A DNA stretch of 64,000 nucleotides, taken from NCBI GenBank assembly GCA_965219445.1, contig CBDCNQ010000005.1, forward strand, positions 1,568,001 to 1,632,000. Reading direction: 5' to 3'. Shown piece by piece: positions 39,195 to 62,757 of this stretch. The notes below the pieces were generated by a model. It saw only the letters and a program-made list of their open reading frames with translations, had not been told where the DNA came from and ran no database searches. Both the position numbers and the translations under genes were made by a program. Position 1 is the stretch's first letter. The number at the start of each line of letters is the position of its first letter. The DNA is from Longimicrobiales bacterium. Its GTDB lineage: Bacteria; Gemmatimonadota; Gemmatimonadetes; Longimicrobiales; Gaopeijiaceae.

Positions 39195-41429
39195 CTAGTT
39201 GCTGGGTGGCGGCGCCTCGATATGCATCTCAACGAGCATCGCCTGGAACCTGGGGTCCTCCCTGATCGGATCCACGTCCGGCAGCCAGGCGAGCGTCGCT
39301 ACTCCGAAAGCACGGAGGTCGATTGCTCGCTGCAGTGTGGCGATAGCCGAGTCGTACTGACCGACGGCTAACTGATACCGAGCCAGGTCGACCGATCGCT
39401 CGCGGAGCGCCGCGCTCAGGTCGGCGGGAACCTCCTGGGCCTGCCCGGTCGTGGCGAGGTGCTCGGCACCCGCCAGGAACTCAGCCATCGGCTCCGCATC
39501 GATCCCTTTCACCTCGGCCACGCGCGCGAAAGCATCCCCCGCGTCCCCGAAGCGCTTCTCAGCGAGGAATAGGAACCCGATCTCGGTCCAGATCCGTTCG
39601 TCGTTCGGGCTCAGCCGGATCCCGTCCTGAGCCTTGCCGATCGCCTGTTCCAGCCGCCCCGAAGCGGCGAATACGCGCGTTGCAGCGAGCTTCACGGCCG
39701 ACGACAGCATATCGACGCGCTCAGCGGCCCGAATCGTCGCGACGGCCCGCTCATGTTGTCCGGCACCCGCGAGCCCGCGGGCCCGGCGCAGGAGCGTCGA
39801 GGATGACGTTGGCCCACTCGCCAACGCTCGCTGGAACTCCACGCCGGCACCGGTCCAATCGTAGGACCTCGACAGGAAGAGCCCCATCGCCGATGGCGCC
39901 TCGCTCGACCCTGGGTCGATCCTCAGCGCTTCCAACGCGGTGCTAGCACCTTCCTCGAGCACCTCACCGACTTGTCGATCGGGCAGGATCTCAGAAGCCC
40001 GCGCGTATGCTTCCGCCGCACCGGCCCAGGCAGGCGCATAGGCGGAGTCCAACGCGATCGCCATGTGGTAATTGTCAATCGCCGCGAGGACTCCAGCCTC
40101 CGTATGGCGATTCACGTTGAACTGGCCCCACAGGTACTTGTCGTACGCCATCTGGTTGGTGGTTGGCACTTCATCGATCATGGACAGCTCACCCTCGGCG
40201 AATCGCATCTCGAGCGCGCCGAGGATCGCGCGCGATACTTCGTCTTGCACCACAAAGAGGTCATCGATAAGGCGCTCGTACTCCGCGCTCCAGATCTCCC
40301 CTCCATCGGCGGACAACAAGCGCGTCTGGACCCGAACACGGGCGTCGCTCTTCGCCACCGTGCCGGCGAGCACGCTGCGTACGCCCAACGCGGAAGCTAC
40401 GGCTGCATGGTCTACCCCTCCCATCATGGCGGCGAGAGAGGATGCTCGAGCGGCGACATCGAGCTCCGGAACGCTGGACAGGCGAATGCGCAGCTCGTCC
40501 GACAGCCCATCGCTGAAGTAGTCGTCCTCTGGGTTGTCCCCCACGTTCTCGAAAGGCAGGACGGCGATCGATCGGATCGCGCCGCCACCTGCGATGGGCT
40601 CCGGAGCCACGGAAGTCGCGTCGGTGAGGAACCACCCGAGCCCTCCCGCAGCCAAGACACCCGCGATCAAGAGCGCGGATCCGCCGCTCAGGAGACGAAT
40701 GGGAGCCGGTGACTCGCCGTGACTCCCGGCCGTGCGGATGAGCCCCTGGGACGTGATGTCGAAGAGCCAGGACCCCGCGAACGCGAGCGGCAATCCCACC
40801 AGGGTCGTGATTACGAGGAGCCGCATGACGAAGTAGGGCAGCCCAAGGGCGGGGAGCATGATGTCGGCGGCTTGCAGCACGGCGAACATCGCCGCCCCAT
40901 AGATCAGCACGACGCGAAAGACCCGGCGGCGCTTGAGCTCGGCGACGAAGTCCTTCACTGCGGAGGGGTCTCTTTTCTCAACGTCGTCTCGCATGGGGAC
41001 TTCCAGTCCGTCTGCCGCGATCGCATGGATTGCCACGGGTGAAACGACGTTCTTGAGACAGAAATGACCGAGGGACACGGTTGGAATCGACGGCCGGTTC
41101 TTGAGCTCGTCGAAAATTTTTTCCGAGACGAGAACACTCCCGGGAACCGCTAGCACCTGAATTCGAGCCGCTACGTTGACGGCGTCTCCGTAGACACCCT
41201 GATCGTCGAAGGAGACCTCTCCTTGATGGACCCCGATCCGTACGGGCACGGGGCTGTCGCTGGCGAGTGCACGTTGAATGTCGATTGCGGCTGAAACCGC
41301 AGCGACTGCACTCGGAAAGACGGTGAGGCTGCCGTCGCCATAGTGCTGGACAACCTTACCACCGTGCTCCCCAGCGGAGGAAGCAACCGCGTCACGCTGA
41401 CGCCGCCGAGCGGAAAGCGCGTTTGGGTC
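39195..41429 (-). pseudogene. 5'-truncated class III cyclase / TolB-like / TPR membrane protein
   Basis: YGDG, RIGVHQG, GDAVNVAARI, ELKRRRVFRV, SIAVLPFEN and TPRs; frame open to 41429, then TGA with no start and no first cyclase motif. Confidence 0.7.
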
Positions 41430-42079
41430 TCAGCGTGAAGGATTTGCTTCATCACGTGCTGGCTGTGCTCCACGATCCGGTCTACCGCAAGGCCAACGCC
41501 GGGGCGCTCAGGATGGAATGGCCGCGCATCCCGCTGCCCGGCTGGCCAGACGGCGAGGCTGAAGGAGCAGCTGAGGCGCTCGCCCGGTCGGCGACACATG
41601 GGCGCGAGCTAGCCGCTCTACTCGATCCAGAAATGCCGGTGCCCGGCGTCACTCGAACCCCGCTGCGTCCCGCCGCCGCCGCTATCGCTGTTCCGTGTAC
41701 CGTCGGGGGACGCAACATGGCGGGCGCCGATTTCGTCGTCACCGTCGGCTGGGGGCACTACGGGTCGGGCGACGCTGTGATGCCCGGCCGAGGCCGCGCC
41801 GAGGAACGAGCCTACACACCGGAGGAAACTACGGCCATGTTGGACGCGTTGCCGGTTCTCGGCGACAAGACCTTCGATGTCTACCTCAACGGGGAGGCAT
41901 TCTGGCGCAACATCCCCGCCGCGGTCTGGGACTACAGGCTCGGTGGCTACCAGATCCTCAAGAAGTGGTTGTCATACCGGGAACGTGAAGTCCTCGGCCG
42001 GAGACTTCGGACCGAGGAAGTTCAGCACTTCACCGATACGGCACGACGAATCGGTGCGATACTGGTAGCGCTAGGTTAG
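41423..42079 (+). pseudogene. C-terminal fragment of a Type ISP restriction-modification enzyme (specificity domain)
   Basis: AVLHDP.YR..NA..L...WPRIPLP and W.Y.LGGYQILKKWLSYRE; no methylase or helicase part. Confidence 0.7.
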
Positions 42080-42265: not shown

Positions 42266-42952
42266 ATGCGGAAACTCATCGTGCTGTGCGTTGCCGAAAT
42301 CATGATCGTAGCAGGGAGTTTCCTGGCCGAATATTTCTGGCCAGCAGGAGACCTTCGTTGGGCTTACGTATTGCTCGCTGGAGCAATCGTGATTCCACTG
42401 CTCTATAGTCCAGAAATTTGGGGCTTCATTCGCCGTCAAGCAACGAAGAGCAGAGAGGCAGACGACACCGAAGTAGAGTCGTCACCACTCCCCCCGGTTA
42501 TTCCCGAGCCGCGTGTTGTCACTACGGTTGACCCAGGGGAAAGCCAAGTTAGCCAGGGGAGAGGCAACCCACTCATCGTTCCAATCTGCATTACAGTAGA
42601 AAACGGCCTTGACGTAGCTGCGCACTTTAGCAAGCTCACACTCGATATTGAAATGAAGGGAGGGGAACGCTCAAGCTGTCAGTTCAAGCACTATCAGATT
42701 TCTCCTCCACCTAGTACCGAACCCAAGCCAGCTGTTTTCCTGTATCGGGTTAGTGATATATCTGTACCAGCTAGACAGTCTATACAGGGATGGGTGTGCT
42801 TTCAGCACGACATCATACGTATTCCATCTTTTGAGAGGTTCGTGTTCACTGCTCAGGCCATAGGTGAGCCCGAGCAAGAATTCAGTTTTGAGCCCTATGA
42901 TTGGCCGCAGGCGACCAATCATCATTCACGGCTCGTCAAGGTGTCGCAGTGA
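42266..42952 (+). CDS. Hypothetical protein with two N-terminal TMs
   Basis: Long ORF in visibly lower-GC DNA; no family recognised. Confidence 0.55.
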   Translation: MRKLIVLCVAEIMIVAGSFLAEYFWPAGDLRWAYVLLAGAIVIPLLYSPEIWGFIRRQATKSREADDTEVESSPLPPVIPEPRVVTTVDPGESQVSQGRGNPLIVPICITVENGLDVAAHFSKLTLDIEMKGGERSSCQFKHYQISPPPSTEPKPAVFLYRVSDISVPARQSIQGWVCFQHDIIRIPSFERFVFTAQAIGEPEQEFSFEPYDWPQATNHHSRLVKVSQ

Positions 42953-43292
42953 GGGGGCGGTCTATGCGTAGTAGCACATTGGGATCCTGCGGAGAAGGTA
43001 GATGACTCATCGCTTGCTGCTGCCTGACCTTGAAATACGCTCGGGAGCGTTCGGAAAGGTCCACCGGAACAACATCTACAATGTCATCGCTGTGTCCGTA
43101 CTAGGCGGTGAGCCAATGCGCCTGTGAGCTAGGATCAAAGGCATCATAGGGGCATGGCGACCGCTACCGGTACCGATCAGCAGCGAAGCAGCCCGAAGAC
43201 GAAGAGGCGTTCTCCTCCGGGAGCGGGTGCGCGTTCATCATTATTCGCGCAAGCAAGCAACCCAACCCGTCCTACCCAAGAGGAGGATGCCC

Positions 43293-44540
43293 ATGGAGAG
43301 GTATATCGGACTCGACGCACACGCGTCGAGCTGCACGCTGGGGATTGTAGGCCCCAGCGGCAAGCGCTTGGGCTCGCAGGTGGTGGAGACGAACGCGCGG
43401 GCGCTGATCGAGGTGCTGCGAGGGATTCCGAGGAACCGGCACTTATGCCTGGAAGAAGGGACGCTGTCGGGGTGGCTGTACGAGGTGCTGAAGCCGCACG
43501 TGGAGGAGCTGACGGTGGCGGGGGTCGGCAAGAGCCGGGGCCCGAAGACCGACAAGCTGGACGCGTTTGCCCTGGCGGAGAAGCTGCGGATCGGATCACT
43601 GGAGACGACGGTCTACAAGAACCGGGGCCAGTTCAGGCGGCTGGGGGAACGGGCGAAGAGCTACGACTTCTTGGTCGGCGACACGGTGCGGGTGAAGAAC
43701 CGGCTCAAGAGCGTGCTGCGCTCGAGAGGAGTGGCCTACGGCGCGGGGCGCTCGGTCTACTTAAAGCGCGACCGGGAGGAGTGGTTGGCCAAGCTGCCGG
43801 AAGCGAGCAGGACGACGGCCGGGTTGCTGTACGAGGAGCACGACGCACTCGTGGCATTGAGGGCGAAGGCCGAGAAGGCGTTGCTGGCGGAAGCACGCAA
43901 GCATCGAGAGTGGCATGTGCTGAAGACGTGCCCGGGTCTGGGTCCGATCCGGACGGCGGAGCTCCTGCCGGTGGTGGTGACGCCGTACCGGTTCCAGAGC
44001 CGGAGCAGGTTCTGGGCGTACTGCGGACTGGGCGTCGTGATGCGGAGCTCGTCGGACTGGGTGCGGGGTCCGGGTGGGCGGTGGGTAAGGGAACCGGTAC
44101 AGCAGACGCGGGGGCTGAATCGGAACTTCAACCACACGCTGAAGCGTGTGTTCAAGGGCGCAGCGACGACGGTGATCGGTCGGGCCGAGGACGAGCCCTT
44201 GTACCGCCACTACGAGCGACTCCTGGAGGGGGGCACGAAGCCGAATCTGGCGAAGCTGACGATCGCGCGTCAGCTCGCCTCGATCGTGCTAGCGGTGTGG
44301 CGCACGGGCGAAGCGTACGACCCAAGAGACTGGAAGCGACGGAGTAAACCGGCCTGGGATCGGCGAGCGTGGGGTCGAAAGCGGTCACAACATGGGGTCC
44401 GACGAAACGGAAGCGAACCGGTTACAGGGGACAGCATCCATACACACCGTGGGCCGGGGCAGAGAGCCCAAGCCCCCACTCAAAGGCTATGCACCCCTGG
44501 AAGAGCCGAACGAAGCGATGGGCCACAGAGTCCCAGATAG
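43293..44540 (+). CDS. IS110-family DEDD recombinase/transposase, C-terminus extended by an apparent 1-nt deletion
   Basis: YIGLDAH, CLEEG, KTDKLDA, PGLG and AYCGLG...RSS; AGGAGG RBS; probable ancestral stop at 44347. Confidence 0.9.
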   Translation: MERYIGLDAHASSCTLGIVGPSGKRLGSQVVETNARALIEVLRGIPRNRHLCLEEGTLSGWLYEVLKPHVEELTVAGVGKSRGPKTDKLDAFALAEKLRIGSLETTVYKNRGQFRRLGERAKSYDFLVGDTVRVKNRLKSVLRSRGVAYGAGRSVYLKRDREEWLAKLPEASRTTAGLLYEEHDALVALRAKAEKALLAEARKHREWHVLKTCPGLGPIRTAELLPVVVTPYRFQSRSRFWAYCGLGVVMRSSSDWVRGPGGRWVREPVQQTRGLNRNFNHTLKRVFKGAATTVIGRAEDEPLYRHYERLLEGGTKPNLAKLTIARQLASIVLAVWRTGEAYDPRDWKRRSKPAWDRRAWGRKRSQHGVRRNGSEPVTGDSIHTHRGPGQRAQAPTQRLCTPGRAERSDGPQSPR

Positions 44541-44605
44541 AAGGATGGTTCCCGCTCCAGAGCGGAGAACGCGACGGCTGTGAACGTCTTCCGGACTGCG
44601 ATGCG
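44425..44605 (+). ncRNA. Candidate bridge/seek RNA core in the IS110 3' non-coding end (ends approximate)
   Basis: Stem-enclosed loop with tacacacc (44441-48) and tcaaagg (44480-86) matching the target; atagaagg (44537-44) matching the donor. Confidence 0.7.
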
Positions 44606-44735
44606 GACCCTGCGAGCGCACCCCTCCCCACCCTGAGTCGTCGACCGGGCAATCCAAACCATGCGGACGCCGACGGTCAAAAAATGAGCCGACGGCGCGT
44701 GGGGAAGGTGCGTCTTGACCGCCAGCCCCATAGAA

Positions 44736-45245
44736 GGGGGGCACGAAGCCGAATCTGGCGAAGCTGACGATCGCGCGTCAGCTCGCCTCGATCGTGCTAG
44801 CGGTGTGGCGCACGGGCGAAGCGTACGACCCCAAGAGACTGGAAGCGACGGAGTAAACCGGCCTGGGATCGGCGAGCGTGGGGTCGAAAGCGGTCACAAC
44901 ATGGGGTCCGACGAAACGGAAGCGAACCGGTTACAGGGGACAGCATCCATACACACCGTGGGCCGGGGCAGAGAGCCCAAGCCCCCACTCAAAGGCTATG
45001 CACCCCTGGAGAGCCGAACGAAGCGATGGGCCACAGAGTCCCAGATAGAAGGATGGTTCCCGCTCCAGAGCGGAGAACGCGACGGCTGTGAACGTCTTCC
45101 GGACTGCGATGCGGACCCTGCGAGCGCACCCCTCCCCACCCTGAGTCGTCGACCGGGCAATCCAAACCATGCGGACGCCGACGGTCAAAAAATGAGCCGA
45201 CGGCGCGTGGGGAAGGTGCGTCTTGACCGCCAGCCCCATAGAAGG
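44736..45245 (+). repeat. Tandem 508-bp repeat of the IS110 3' part (44228-44735), including the non-coding end
   Basis: Direct comparison; two 1-nt indels relative to copy 1 (gacccc vs gaccc; ctggagag vs ctggaagag). Confidence 0.9.
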
Positions 45246-45341
45246 GTGTGTAAAAAAAGAGGCGACGTACCTTTCCGCTAGGTAGTAAGAAGTTAACCAG
45301 CGAATCCCGGGTGAGCGCCCGGGGGAAAGGAACGATGCCTC

Positions 45342-46586
45342 GTGAGGAAGAATATGGTGGGACCCGAGAGTGAGTCCAGCACGCCGACGTGGGAGTGCTT
45401 GGAAGCGCTGGTTCGTGAGAAGGCCCAGGAGATGGTCCAGCGGATTCTGGAGGAGGAAGTGACGGAGTTGCTCGGCCGGGAGAAGTCGGAGCGGAAGACG
45501 GTCGTAGACCCGGCGCCAGGCTACCGCAACGGCTACGGCAAGGCTCGGCGGCTGGCGATGAGCTCGGGCACGATCATGCTCCGACGGCCCCGGGTTCGAG
45601 GCATTGAGGAGCGGTTCGAGAGTCGGGTGTTGCCGTTGTTCGCACGACGGACGAAGGAGGTGGGTGCTCTGCTTCCGGAGCTGTATCTGCACGGGCTGGC
45701 GGAGGGAGACTTCGAGCTGGCGATGCGGGGCCTGCTGGGCGAGGGGGCCCCGTTGTCGAAGTCTTCGATTTGGCGGCTGCGGGCGGGATGGACAAGGAAA
45801 TTCGAGGAATGGTCGAAGCGCTCGCTGGCCGACCGTGAGGTCGTCTACGTCTGGGCGGACGGGATCTACGTGAAGGCGGGGCTCGAGCGGGACAAGGCAG
45901 CGCTGCTGGTGGTTCTCGGTGCGATGCGAGATGGTACGAAGGAGGTGTTGGCCCTGAGATCGGGCTACCGAGAGTCGGTCGAGTCCTGGTCCGAGGTGTT
46001 GCGGGATCTGAAGGCACGCGGCATCGAGGCGCCCCGGCTTTTGATGGCGGACGGCAACGCGGCGATCTGGGGCGCAGTACGGCAGGTATGGCCTGAGGCG
46101 GGCGAGCAACGGTGCTGGAACCACAAGATGAGGAACGTGCTGGACCGGCTGCCTCAGCGGGAGCAGAGCGAGGCGAAGGACCTTCTCAGGACCGTGGTCT
46201 ACGCACCGAGGCGGTCCGAGGCGCTGAAGGCCCGTGAGGCGTTCGCCAGGCGCTACAGACCGTGGTATCCGAAGGCGGTGGATGTACTCGAGGACGACTG
46301 GGAGCGGATGGTGGCGTTCTACGACTTCCCCGAGGACCACTGGAAGCATCTACGCACGACGAACGTGGTCGAGAGCCCCTTTGCCGCAGTACGGCTCAGG
46401 ACAACGGCGGCGAAGCGCTTCAAGCGGGTCGAGAGCGCTACGGCGCTGATCTGGAAGCTGCTCTTGGTGGCGGAGAAGCGCTTCAGAAGGCTCGACGCTC
46501 CTCACCTCCTCAAGGACGTATTTGAAGGAAGAAAGTTCGAAGACGGAAAGCCCGTCTCAACCCAACAGCGGAAAAACGCCGCCTGA
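45342..46586 (+). CDS. IS256-family (Mutator-like) DDE transposase
   Basis: YRNGYG, LYLHGL, VWADGIY, MADG, QRCWNHK and RTTNVVES motifs. Confidence 0.92.
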   Translation: MRKNMVGPESESSTPTWECLEALVREKAQEMVQRILEEEVTELLGREKSERKTVVDPAPGYRNGYGKARRLAMSSGTIMLRRPRVRGIEERFESRVLPLFARRTKEVGALLPELYLHGLAEGDFELAMRGLLGEGAPLSKSSIWRLRAGWTRKFEEWSKRSLADREVVYVWADGIYVKAGLERDKAALLVVLGAMRDGTKEVLALRSGYRESVESWSEVLRDLKARGIEAPRLLMADGNAAIWGAVRQVWPEAGEQRCWNHKMRNVLDRLPQREQSEAKDLLRTVVYAPRRSEALKAREAFARRYRPWYPKAVDVLEDDWERMVAFYDFPEDHWKHLRTTNVVESPFAAVRLRTTAAKRFKRVESATALIWKLLLVAEKRFRRLDAPHLLKDVFEGRKFEDGKPVSTQQRKNAA

Positions 46587-46750
46587 AACATTTACACACC
46601 TATTGACCCAACCTCTGCGCCTGACTGCCGACGCATTGAGCGCAAATGAGTTCTCATCCTACGTGGAGAACCTAAAGAAGCGATTAGACACTCTTGTGGC
46701 AGAGGCGAGGGCCGACGAGACGAAGCTTCGAAAGAGCCAGGGTCTACCCC

Positions 46751-47640
46751 TTATGCGGCCGTCAGCTCCCGATATCGAAGAGCCTCCCGATCCAGGAGCC
46801 GGGTCATGATCGTCTCGAAGATGTACGGGTTGTGCCGGTTGTTGAACCTGAACTCGACCTCGGAGAGGTAGGCGTCCAGGTGCTTCGCGCTGATCTGGTG
46901 CCACGCGCCGACGATGGAGCGCTTGAGCAGGCTCCAGACGCCCTCGACGCTGTTCGTGTGAACGTCACCGGCCACCCCACTCCTCCTCGCAGTGCCTGAC
47001 CGTCTCGTGGCGCGTGTCGTGGTCGGCGATCCCGAGGTAGGACTTGAGCTCGTCGGTGTAAATCGCCTCGGTGTCGGGCCGCGTGTTCCTGGCGATGAAG
47101 GCGTGGAGCGTGGCCCGCTTGATGTCGGGAACGGCCTTGATGCGGACCTCGCCGCCACGCTGGACGGCCCCTGCCACCCATGTCTTGTCGACCCGGTTGC
47201 CGGTCCCGACCCCGCGCCTCTTGCCGCTGATCAGGGTCTCGTCCACCTCGACCACCCCGAACAGGGTCGGTCCGCCGACTACACGGCTCTTCATGGCCGT
47301 ACGGATGCGGTGGCACAGGTGCCACGCGGTCTTGTAGGAGACGCCGATCATCCGCTTGATCTGGTTCGCGCTGATGCTCTTCTTCGACTCGCAGATCAGG
47401 TAGATCGTCACGAACCACTTCCAGAGCGGAAGGTTCGTGTTGTCGAAGATCGTCCCAGACGTGACGCTGAAGCGGTAGCGGCACCCGTTGCAATCGAACT
47501 GGTCGCGGGTGCTGATCTCGGAGACGGACAGGCCCCCGCAACGGGGGCAGCAGACGCCAGCGGACCAGCGCAGCTTTTCGAGATACTCGCGGCAAGTCTC
47601 TTCGTCGCGGAACTTCTCGATCAAGGAAATCAGATTGATT
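46751..47640 (-). pseudogene. IS1595-family transposase, frameshifted
   Basis: Zn ribbon CPRC/CNGC, TAW..CHRIR, VEVDET, IYTDE, HTNSVEGVWS and YLSE..FRFN; extra G near 46975. Confidence 0.85.
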
Positions 47641-48229: not shown

Positions 48230-49062
48230 GGATGTGTTGCAACTTTCAAAAATCAGCAAGAGAGCGACTGGTTGGGTCGACCAGGCTCCGTCTTACTGCG
48301 GCCACTTCGAACAGCTTGTTGATGAACTGAATCTGTTGCCGAACATCCGAACCGCTCACCCACCTCGCCTGACCCTTCCGGATCATGTGAATTGCCTCAT
48401 AATCCTTGGATCGTTCGCCGTGCCGCGTGAAATTCACGAAAGCCCTGCTTGGCCTTCACGCGTCGTTTGATCGCTCGATGATCCTGCTCCAGGATGTTGT
48501 TCAAGTATTGGATCGGCCGGTGACGGCAACGGTGTCGCAGGATTCCTTCCTGCTTCACTCCTGAAATCGCCGCGCCATAGAGGCGTGCTTGGTCCGTATA
48601 GATAACCCGGGGCTGCCGATGCGACGGATTCGTCAGCGCCTGGCGGAACAGGCGTTTGGCCGTAGCGGCATCGCGCAACCTCGAGAGCACGAAGTCGGTC
48701 GTGGCGCCGGTGGAATCGATGGCTCGGTAGAGGTAGCACCAACGGCCCTTGACACGAACGTAGGTCTCATCGACCCGCCAGGACCTGTTGGTTGGCTTGA
48801 GATGACGGCGCAGCCGCGCCTCCAGTTCGGGACCGTAGCGCTGGACCCGGCGCCAGATTGTCGTGTGGTCCGCCTCCAGGCCGCGCTCGCTGAACAGCTC
48901 TTCGACATCGCGGAACGAGAGCGAGTACCGAAGGTACCAGCGCACGGCGCAAAGAATCGGCTCGGGCTCGGTTTGTCGCCACTTGAAGATCGCCGGTCGG
49001 ATTGTCTTTTTCATGATCTCTTCAGGTTACCAGCCGCTGTCCGCCAAAGTTGCAACACAACC
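48230..49062 (-). mobile_element. IS6-family element (833 bp) with frameshifted transposase
   Basis: 17-bp IRs ggatgtgttgcaacttt / aaagttgcaacacaacc; VRWYLRY.LS, WRVDETY and NNILEQDHR; +1 shift near 48400. Confidence 0.88.
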
Positions 49063-60934: not shown

Positions 60935-61216
60935 GCCCATAACCAGTCGTTGCTTAATCTCGTACAGCATATGAGCGGACACATCGCGGCTACCGACTCC
61001 GCGGCCAGACGCCAGCTGCGACGGCCAGCGGATCCAGAGGGTTCCGTAGGAGCTAGGATCAAAGGCATCATAGGGGCATGGCGACCGCTACCGGTACCGA
61101 TCAGCAGCGAAGCAGCCCGAAGACGAAGAGGCGTTCTCCTCCGGGAGCGGGTGCGCGTTCATCATTATTCGCGCAAGCAAGCAACCCAACCCGTCCTACC
61201 CAAGAGGAGGATGCCG

Positions 61217-62464
61217 ATGGAGAGGTATATCGGACTCGACGCACACGCGTCGAGCTGCACGCTGGGGATTGTAGGCCCCAGCGGCAAGCGCTTGGGCTCG
61301 CAGGTGGTGGAGACGAACGCGCGGGCGCTGATCGAGGTGCTGCGAGGGATTCCGAGGAACCGGCACTTATGCCTGGAAGAAGGGACGCTGTCGGGGTGGC
61401 TGTACGAGGTGCTGAAGCCGCACGTGGAGGAGCTGACGGTGGCGGGGGTCGGCAAGAGCCGGGGCCCGAAGACCGACAAGCTGGACGCGTTTGCCCTGGC
61501 GGAGAAGCTGCGGATCGGATCACTGGAGACGACGGTCTACAAGAACCGGGGCCAGTTCAGGCGGCTGGGGGAACGGGCGAAGAGCTACGACTTCTTGGTC
61601 GGCGACACGGTGCGGGTGAAGAACCGGCTCAAGAGCGTGCTGCGCTCGAGAGGAGTGGCCTACGGCGCGGGGCGCTCGGTCTACTTAAAGCGCGACCGGG
61701 AGGAGTGGTTGGCCAAGCTGCCGGAAGCGAGCAGGACGACGGCCGGGTTGCTGTACGAGGAGCACGACGCACTCGTGGCATTGAGGGCGAAGGCCGAGAA
61801 GGCGTTGCTGGCGGAAGCACGCAAGCATCGAGAGTGGCATGTGCTGAAGACGTGCCCGGGTCTGGGTCCGATCCGGACGGCGGAGCTCCTGCCGGTGGTG
61901 GTGACGCCGTACCGGTTCCAGAGCCGGAGCAGGTTCTGGGCGTACTGCGGACTGGGCGTCGTGATGCGGAGCTCGTCGGACTGGGTGCGGGGTCCGGGTG
62001 GGCGGTGGGTAAGGGAACCGGTACAGCAGACGCGGGGGCTGAATCGGAACTTCAACCACACGCTGAAGCGTGTGTTCAAGGGCGCAGCGACGACGGTGAT
62101 CGGTCGGGCCGAGGACGAGCCCTTGTACCGCCACTACGAGCGACTCCTGGAGGGGGGCACGAAGCCGAATCTGGCGAAGCTGACGATCGCGCGTCAGCTC
62201 GCCTCGATCGTGCTAGCGGTGTGGCGCACGGGCGAAGCGTACGACCCAAGAGACTGGAAGCGACGGAGTAAACCGGCCTGGGATCGGCGAGCGTGGGGTC
62301 GAAAGCGGTCACAACATGGGGTCCGACGAAACGGAAGCGAACCGGTTACAGGGGACAGCATCCATACACACCGTGGGCCGGGGCAGAGAGCCCAAGCCCC
62401 CACTCAAAGGCTATGCACCCCTGGAAGAGCCGAACGAAGCGATGGGCCACAGAGTCCCAGATAG
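61217..62464 (+). CDS. IS110-family recombinase/transposase, copy 2
   Basis: Same translation as 43293-44540. Confidence 0.9.
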   Translation: MERYIGLDAHASSCTLGIVGPSGKRLGSQVVETNARALIEVLRGIPRNRHLCLEEGTLSGWLYEVLKPHVEELTVAGVGKSRGPKTDKLDAFALAEKLRIGSLETTVYKNRGQFRRLGERAKSYDFLVGDTVRVKNRLKSVLRSRGVAYGAGRSVYLKRDREEWLAKLPEASRTTAGLLYEEHDALVALRAKAEKALLAEARKHREWHVLKTCPGLGPIRTAELLPVVVTPYRFQSRSRFWAYCGLGVVMRSSSDWVRGPGGRWVREPVQQTRGLNRNFNHTLKRVFKGAATTVIGRAEDEPLYRHYERLLEGGTKPNLAKLTIARQLASIVLAVWRTGEAYDPRDWKRRSKPAWDRRAWGRKRSQHGVRRNGSEPVTGDSIHTHRGPGQRAQAPTQRLCTPGRAERSDGPQSPR

Positions 62465-62529
62465 AAGGATGGTTCCCGCTCCAGAGCGGAGAACGCGACG
62501 GCTGTGAACGTCTTCCGGACTGCGATGCG
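62349..62529 (+). ncRNA. Candidate bridge/seek RNA core, copy 2 (ends approximate)
   Basis: Same guide-bearing stem-loop; tacacacc at 62365. Confidence 0.7.
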
Positions 62530-62757
62530 GACCCTGCGAGCGCACCCCTCCCCACCCTGAGTCGTCGACCGGGCAATCCAAACCATGCGGACGCCGACGG
62601 TCAAAAAATGAGCCGACGGCGCGTGGGGAAGGTGCGTCTTGACCGCCAGCCCCATAGAAGGGTGTGTAAAAAAAGAGGCGACGTACCTTTCCGCTAGGTA
62701 GTAAGAAGTTAACCAGCGAATCCCGGGTGAGCGCCCGGGGGAAAGGAACGATGCCTC

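Follow-up and report, generated by a model that had tools for sequence, protein, structure and literature searches.

Organization of the Locus

The window, i.e., the whole 64,000-nucleotide stretch of the Longimicrobiales contig CBDCNQ010000005.1 that was analysed, contains an IS110-family element lodged in the left terminal inverted repeat of an IS256-family element. The IS110-family element comprises a DEDD recombinase gene with 151 bases of non-coding DNA on its 5′ side and approximately 390 bases on its 3′ side, the latter carrying a predicted bridge/seek RNA whose target loop begins about 80 bases behind the gene. A duplication that agrees at 8 of its 9 bases flanks the whole IS256::IS110 composite. 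The main features, in window coordinates, are the following.

43117–43125 (+): left copy of the IS256 target-site duplication, 8/9 bases identical to 46616–46624
43126–43140 (+): outer segment of the left inverted repeat of the IS256-family element, with TCAA (left target) and the core AG (43139–43140) at its end
43141–43292 (+): left non-coding end of the IS110-family element, starting with the right donor GCATCAT
from 43146 (+): imperfect subterminal repeat of the left end
within the left end (+): CATCAT, predicted from spacing as the −10 box of a circle-junction promoter
43293–44347 (+): IS110-family DEDD recombinase gene (D8, E54, D87, D90, S253)
44425–44499 (+): predicted bridge/seek RNA target-binding loop
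44425–44437 with 44489–44499: outer stem of the target loop
44441–44448 (+): right target guide TACACACC, complementary to top-strand positions +1 to +8 (family column of 9 nt, 44441–44449)
44479–44486 (+): left target guide (C)TCAAAGG, in top-strand sense and thus pairing with the bottom strand (kappa 0.57–1.0 along the diagonal)
44510–44544 (+): donor loop
44510–44516 (+): ACGAAGC, predicted right donor guide, pairing with the left end of the element at 5/7 positions
44537–44544 (+): ATAGAAGG, left donor guide with the same sequence as the right end of the element
44715–44736 (+): first right end, with the predicted −35 box TTGACC, a subterminal repeat, and the left donor ATAGAAG
44737–45244 (+): tandem 508-bp duplicate of the gene 3′ end, the whole RNA, and the right end, joined at the right-end core
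44934–45008 (+): second target loop, within the tandem duplicate
45245–46615 (+): remainder of the IS256-family element, whose right inverted repeat ends at 46615
45245–45252 (+): inner left repeat, right target GGTGTGTA
45342–46586 (+): Mutator-family transposase of the IS256-family element
61050–62660 (+): second copy of the IS110-family element, in the left repeat of another IS256 copy and without the tandem duplicate
62349–62423 (+): target loop of the second element copy

The left junction reads TCAAAGG (43135–43141), and the right flank is GGTGTGTA. The 508-bp duplicate differs from the first copy by two one-base indels, of which it is itself free. Tandem duplicates also occur in genome G063 (loci L192, L196, and L199), where 458 bases are repeated three times from another breakpoint; in both genomes the duplicates are joined exactly at the right-end core. 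Because a like triple exists in G063 with a different breakpoint, the joints were probably made by the recombinase, rather than by an assembly slip.

The region 3′ of the composite is an insertion hot spot, with an apparently truncated or frameshifted IS1595-family transposase (46804–47624, −) and a partial IS6-family transposase (48397–49014, −). Before the composite lie an isolated C-terminal fragment of a Type ISP restriction-modification protein (41423–42079, +) and a 228-residue membrane-anchored protein without a Pfam match (42266–42952, +).

The Recombinase

The recombinase contains the PF01548 and PF02371 domains. Its D8, E54, D87, D90, and S253 residues are invariant in 38 homologs, and this DEDD set and serine align with D11, E60, D102, D105, and S241 of IS621. 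Intact copies are 351 residues long; in the window copy, a one-base deletion near 44321 alters the last seven residues, and the frame reads on to 44540 (415 residues). Its identity to named references is 17–28%, and no protein in the plasmid collection exceeds 28%. In a tree of 26 sequences, which took in 17 references (IS1111 itself not among them), it forms its own clade (bootstrap 100) with a haloarchaeal IS110 protein as sister (95) and falls outside the group of IS4321, ISPa25, ISGdi15, and ISMno22 (98), the deep nodes being weak (76). It is best placed as a deep branch of the bridge recombinases. The branch numbers 3,195 proteins at E ≤ 1e-20 among 8,000 scored, with close relatives in Longimicrobiales genomes and more distant ones in Gemmatimonadota, Myxococcota, and other groups. 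A 40%-identical relative in G005 (L006, L017, and L026) attains 15 copies, several of them clustered within a few kilobases; the RNA profile gave no match to it.

Fold of the Predicted Guide RNA

A previous sequence-only reading of this DNA had proposed that 44425–44499 is the readable target-binding loop of a candidate guide RNA. This observation is confirmed, and the wider reading is largely supported. The stem, hairpin, and guide motifs it quoted all lie where it had placed them, with the qualification that the two outermost pairs of the inner gtggg/cccac hairpin are lineage-specific and missing from the family consensus. The guide segments, which should be unpaired in a working loop of this kind, are largely so: TACACACC is 90–100% unpaired and the TCAAA of the left guide 96–100% unpaired, while the last GG of the left guide is only 39% unpaired in the single-sequence ensemble, yet unpaired in the family consensus.

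Single-sequence folding was rejected as proof of structure because the z-scores (−1.2 for 390 nt and −1.7 for 86 nt) are not significant. Both exact guide words occur together in 4 of 20,000 shuffles of the 390-nt region, and 415 of the 20,000 contain a looser match, in which some 8-mer of the target region is accompanied by a separate 7-mer. The evidence from the window locus is therefore modest when taken by itself, but covariation among homologs settles the guide reading. Across 72 diverse sequences, 12 of the 23 pairs in the consensus stems show two-sided changes, and 96% of cells pair as opposed to 37–58% in slid controls, a comparison that favors pairing since the structure was derived from the same alignment used to score it. 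A search of 43000–46700 against Rfam returned no matches at E ≤ 1. The order of guides along the RNA is right target, left target, right donor, left donor.

Covariation of the Target Guides with Flanking DNA

The homolog sample comprised 79 loci out of 498 matches in genomes, 80 out of at least 565 in metagenomes, and 30 from relatives. These 189 loci gave 175 protein matches, 162 with enough downstream DNA, 149 RNA-profile matches, and 144 with both guides. Element ends were called from end motifs, independently of the RNA; L062, L143, and (on the left side only) L099 were dropped as mis-anchored, and three extra bases at the right junction were trimmed in 7 of 87 loci.

The left guide matches the left flank (positions −7 to −4) at 3.63 of 4 bases compared with 1.94 after shuffling (73 distinct guide pairs); when the commonest guide type is removed, the values are 0.88 and 0.34 (38 rows). 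The right guide matches the right flank, in the best of three registers, at 0.80 compared with 0.48 after shuffling (56 pairs, 13 of them below 0.7), and wrong-sense controls give 0.30–0.46. The observed match was reached in 0 of 10,000 permutations for the left guide and 0 of 5,000 for the right, counts that overstate significance because the homologs are related. The right-guide register varies, with 29 in one register, 11 shifted by one (the window element included), and three by two. When every RNA column was compared without bias with every flank position (six rows left out), the top pairs were the same-sense diagonal at 44479–44485 and the complementary anti-diagonal at 44441–44448. This bears out both the guide–target covariation and the arrangement that the sequence-only reading had described, i.e., an RNA located 3′ of the gene with the right guide before the left.

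Natural reprogramming of the guides is visible in these alignments. The nearest relatives (79–85% protein identity) have scaffolds that are 86–90% identical, and they keep only 3–4 of the 14 guide letters; homologs with other targets have thus altered exactly the segments in question, where an unchanged guide would have spoken against the proposal. Many relatives (L042, L043, L054, L075, L110, L116, and L131) share a target type consisting of GGATAG, the core, five variable bases, and CAA. The three extra bases, AAG, at the right junction occur in 7 of 87 loci, one of them a duplicate fetch, spread across distant members (L016, L049, L063, L066, L089, and L119), which suggests a recurring slip in strand exchange.

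Donor Loop, Core, and Element Ends

The sequence-only reading did not include the donor loop (44510–44544). In this loop, the left donor guide ATAGAAGG tracks the right end of the element at five variable positions in 77 RNAs (kappa 0.85–1.0). The right donor guide pairs imperfectly (5/7 positions), and one of its positions tracks the left element end with a kappa of 0.76 (window position 44512 against donor +4); the covariation scan numbers this part of the loop one base lower.

The core had been read as GG. This assignment is ruled out because five copies in G062 have A at target position +1 while their left junction still has G, and because only 55 of 76 distinct flanks have G at +1. Together with the left guide ending in AGG or AAG in 105 of 107 pairs, these data define the shared core as AG (or AA), located at 43139–43140 in the window and hence one base from the earlier placement. 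It follows that the last G of the left junction is donor-derived. Comparison of filled and empty sites shows insertion at this short shared core without target duplication, the exception being the 7 of 87 loci with three extra bases.

When the element ends are joined on paper, they read TTGACC, 17 bases, and CATCAT, a spacing that would suit a junction promoter; a consensus scan found no promoter in the linear element. No circle junction was seen in the contigs of four runs, and the one RNA run among them had one contig of 286 bases within the gene and nothing covering the RNA; in both cases, contigs cannot show absence. Across the joined ends, 10 bases (terminal extensions of 7 and 3) part two imperfect subterminal repeats. 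The longest exact stretch shared by these repeats is 4–9 bases in 43 distinct end pairs (first 22 bases per end), and in the window element it is five bases, or 12 with two one-base gaps. Decayed remnants of related elements include a lone donor loop (G000:C5:1023333-1023425) and a lone left end behind a GGATAGG-type target (G000:C2:661546-661605).

The Target and Its Empty Copies

An IS256-family element supplies the target, which the earlier reading had left unnamed: it is the left terminal inverted repeat of that element. This genome has 24 element left ends plus one diverged remnant. Of the 24, 23 lie in the IS256 left repeat behind the same 15–16 bases (43126–43140 in the window), and 21 of the 24 right ends run into GGTGTGTA, which empty copies reach directly. 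The IS256 right repeat was rejected as the target here (0 of 24 left junctions). Two off-target copies, one here and one in G062, still resemble the guides. The 14-nt target given in the earlier reading is absent in empty form from this genome and was recovered intact inside the IS256 left ends of relatives; since the repeat is uninterrupted there, the insertion point is fixed independently of the RNA.

Perfect empty ends are unevenly distributed. None of the five empty IS256 left ends here is perfect, and they carry five different changes inside the guide-matched 14 bases. Among relatives with intact copies, the counts are 0/10 in G062, 0/1 in G063, and 1/3 in G065. By comparison, G064 has 44 perfect ends out of 45; its one full copy carries R49Q and G101R at otherwise invariant residues and probably encodes an inactive protein. 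In G061, whose one copy carries other guides, 5 of 6 are perfect. The overall contrast of 1/19 (four genomes) with 49/51 (two genomes) is a pattern and not a test, because the genomes are few and related, and the search pattern for empty ends would miss some variants. Within this pattern, perfect targets are often left empty only in genomes whose sole copy of the element is mutated or retargeted. IS256 left ends are still present in numbers (28 in this genome and ~46 in G064).

Three of the changed empty ends here belong to IS256 bodies that are otherwise unchanged over 1,371 bases. Approximately 0.09 such changes are expected among 17 near-identical copies (rough P ~1e-4, with four more diverged copies left out). 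Each of the three is interpretable as a left–right junction hybrid and is possibly an excision scar.

The G061 element is a sister with 95% protein identity, 99% scaffold identity, and 8 of 14 guide letters in common. It sits behind an IS256 right repeat, which its left guide matches at 7 of 8 positions. Its retargeting rests on one junction, because the element is a single copy with a rearranged right flank, and a search of its genome found no further copies.

These data allow a tentative view, which we regard as somewhat less probable than its negation, of an arms race between the two insertion sequences. A retargeted deep-branch element would fill every perfect IS256 left end, and IS256 would survive through copies changed in the core or guide-matched bases, some of them immunizing scars of imprecise excision; the sister element would have rewritten its guides toward the IS256 right end.

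In G000, several composites have left flanks that match the right flanks of other composites, a sign either that recombination between copies has rearranged the genome or that flanks were swapped in the assembly. The IS256 right repeats of L039 and G000:C2:600543 adjoin nearly the same 20 bases (left flank of L027 and L039), which we take to resemble the end of another insertion sequence.

Proposed Mechanism and Alternatives

The predicted two-loop bridge/seek RNA very likely directs insertion by the IS110-family recombinase to the left terminal inverted repeat of IS256. Sequence and comparison establish the element ends, the target, the conserved RNA fold, and the four guides; transcription, binding, circle formation, and catalysis are modeled on work with IS621 and ISEc11. 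We hold with high confidence that the most likely scheme is the standard bridge mechanism in mirror order. The element would be excised as a circle whose joined ends form a promoter (TTGACC, 17 bases, CATCAT), and this junction promoter would transcribe the gene and the RNA. A recombinase tetramer would bind both RNA loops, TACACACC pairing with the top strand of the target and TCAAAG with the bottom strand, while the donor loop would pair likewise with the circle junction. Strand exchange would take place just after the shared AG core, without target duplication. Targeting a repeat that IS256 itself spreads would provide a renewing supply of harmless sites. One observation that runs counter to this scheme is the perfect empty site that persists in G065, a genome with intact copies.

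Part of the two-loop scheme could be dispensable if insertion is guided by the target loop only, acting as a short seekRNA. The other loop would then be structural or vestigial, and the protein would read the element ends via subterminal repeats, which is what Siddiquee et al. propose in the case of IS1111 elements (PMC11187229). The same source gives 82–96 nt for the predominant IS1111 seekRNAs, which suffice for transposition, and the right donor guide is indeed imperfect here. The close tracking of the right end by the left donor guide (kappa 0.85–1.0 in 77 RNAs), the one tracking position of the right donor guide (0.76), and the weakness of the subterminal repeats (4–9 exact bases) all argue for a functional donor loop and make the short-RNA alternative unlikely.

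It is still less probable that a single insertion was followed by spread of the IS256::IS110 composite, with no repeated guided targeting. Several composites do have matching 8–9-base flanking duplications, and near-identical composites occur in several related genomes. Such a history is unlikely because twelve identical IS256 bodies hold IS110 copies differing by up to ~29 changes and because IS256 variants only 80–89% alike are also filled; many flanks are swapped between copies, and recombination among copies blurs this evidence. In addition, the off-target copies match the guides, and the family-wide covariation would be left without explanation. That the guide matches are due to chance or copied DNA (e.g., remnants of earlier insertions), with the protein alone picking the target, appears highly implausible. 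At the window locus, a loose match arises in 2% of shuffles and the fold stability is ordinary, which this explanation would accommodate; it has no account of position-specific covariation that has opposite senses for the two segments, falls in fixed columns of a conserved fold, and spans proteins 49–100% alike. The mirror-order bridge mechanism thus remains the preferred explanation.

Relationship to Known Bridge and Seek RNA Systems

Bridge and seek guide RNAs have been known since 2024 (PMC11187229, PMC11208160). The novelty that the sequence-only reading implied for the layout does not hold: an RNA in the 3′ non-coding region with the top-strand match first, as well as natural reprogramming, is already described for IS1111 seekRNAs by Siddiquee et al. 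2024 (PMC11187229). The same authors also note exceptions with 3′ regions and weak repeats, and ISEc21, which targets IS3-family genes. Durrant et al. 2024 (PMC11208160) predict that 93% of IS1111s carry a bridge RNA in their right end, the donor bases often lying within a multi-loop. Variants of bridge RNAs have been mined on a large scale in a study whose supplements may include the present clade (bioRxiv 2026.10.21.760802); further comparison literature comprises PMC13626964, PMC13604230, bioRxiv 2025.10.25.684509, and PMC12288879.

The IS1111 seekRNA elements ISEc11, ISKpn4, ISPst6, and ISPa11 (PMC11187229) share with the present element a DEDD recombinase and a long 3′ non-coding region. 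They further share (i) a top-strand match 5′ of the bottom-strand match, (ii) natural reprogramming, and (iii) an end spacing of 7 and 3 bases around the subterminal repeat. Unlike the 11–13 near-perfect bases of IS1111 elements, the subterminal repeat here is short and imperfect. The recombinase also differs, being ~20% identical to IS4321 and ISPa25, outside their clade, and with an SS in place of the SG motif, and in the RNA a second, simple internal loop covaries with the donor.

The likeness to the IS621 bridge RNA (PMC11208160, PMC11208158) extends to two internal loops, a target loop 5′ of the donor loop, four guides, a dinucleotide core, the same catalytic residues, and a junction promoter (predicted here). 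In contrast to IS621-type RNAs, which lie in the left end, the present RNA is 3′ of the gene, and the right guide precedes the left in both loops, whereas in IS621 the LTG (50–58) precedes the RTG (77–80). The right target guide has 8–9 bases instead of four, the core is AG or AA instead of CT, and the proteins are 22% identical.

In the broad sense, the element belongs with IS110: it has the recombinase domains and residues, a structured RNA that covaries with the target, a loop that covaries with the donor, and insertion at a core without duplication. It also has the downstream non-coding region, the top-strand match in first position, and the 7- and 3-base extensions of IS1111 in the strict sense. 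Strict IS1111 membership is rejected by the weak subterminal repeats and by a position outside the IS1111-group proteins in the tree with 17 references, and membership in the IS110 group (IS621 type) by the reversed guide order and an RNA that is not in the left end. Given its deep-branch recombinase and weak subterminal repeats, the element works like IS1111 without conforming to the family definition; it is best described as putatively IS1111-seekRNA-like in its working with an IS621-like donor loop, two defining IS1111 features being missing.

Targeting of a conserved piece of another mobile element is itself familiar from a known IS110/IS1111-type element, and Partridge and Hall reportedly described in 2003 that IS4321 and IS5075 target the terminal repeats of Tn21. 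The present case differs from that known element in that the target is an IS256-family left repeat, the lineage is unrelated beyond the family level, and the saturation of perfect sites along with changed empty sites is visible within single genomes. Literature searches found no relevant report of an IS256-end target for such an element.

Implications

What is new here is the lineage and the pattern of IS256 saturation and escape, the kind of RNA being already known. The element confirms that a large recombinase branch far from the characterized bridge recombinases has a readable guide subject to natural reprogramming. Its long right guides (8–9 bases), AG/AA core, clean two-loop RNA, and reversed order make it a candidate orthogonal genome-writing enzyme, and it offers a test of whether a donor loop is used by RNAs with the IS1111 layout. 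The IS256 ends, filled and empty, constitute a natural mismatch table, and the pair provides a tractable case of one insertion sequence parasitizing another.
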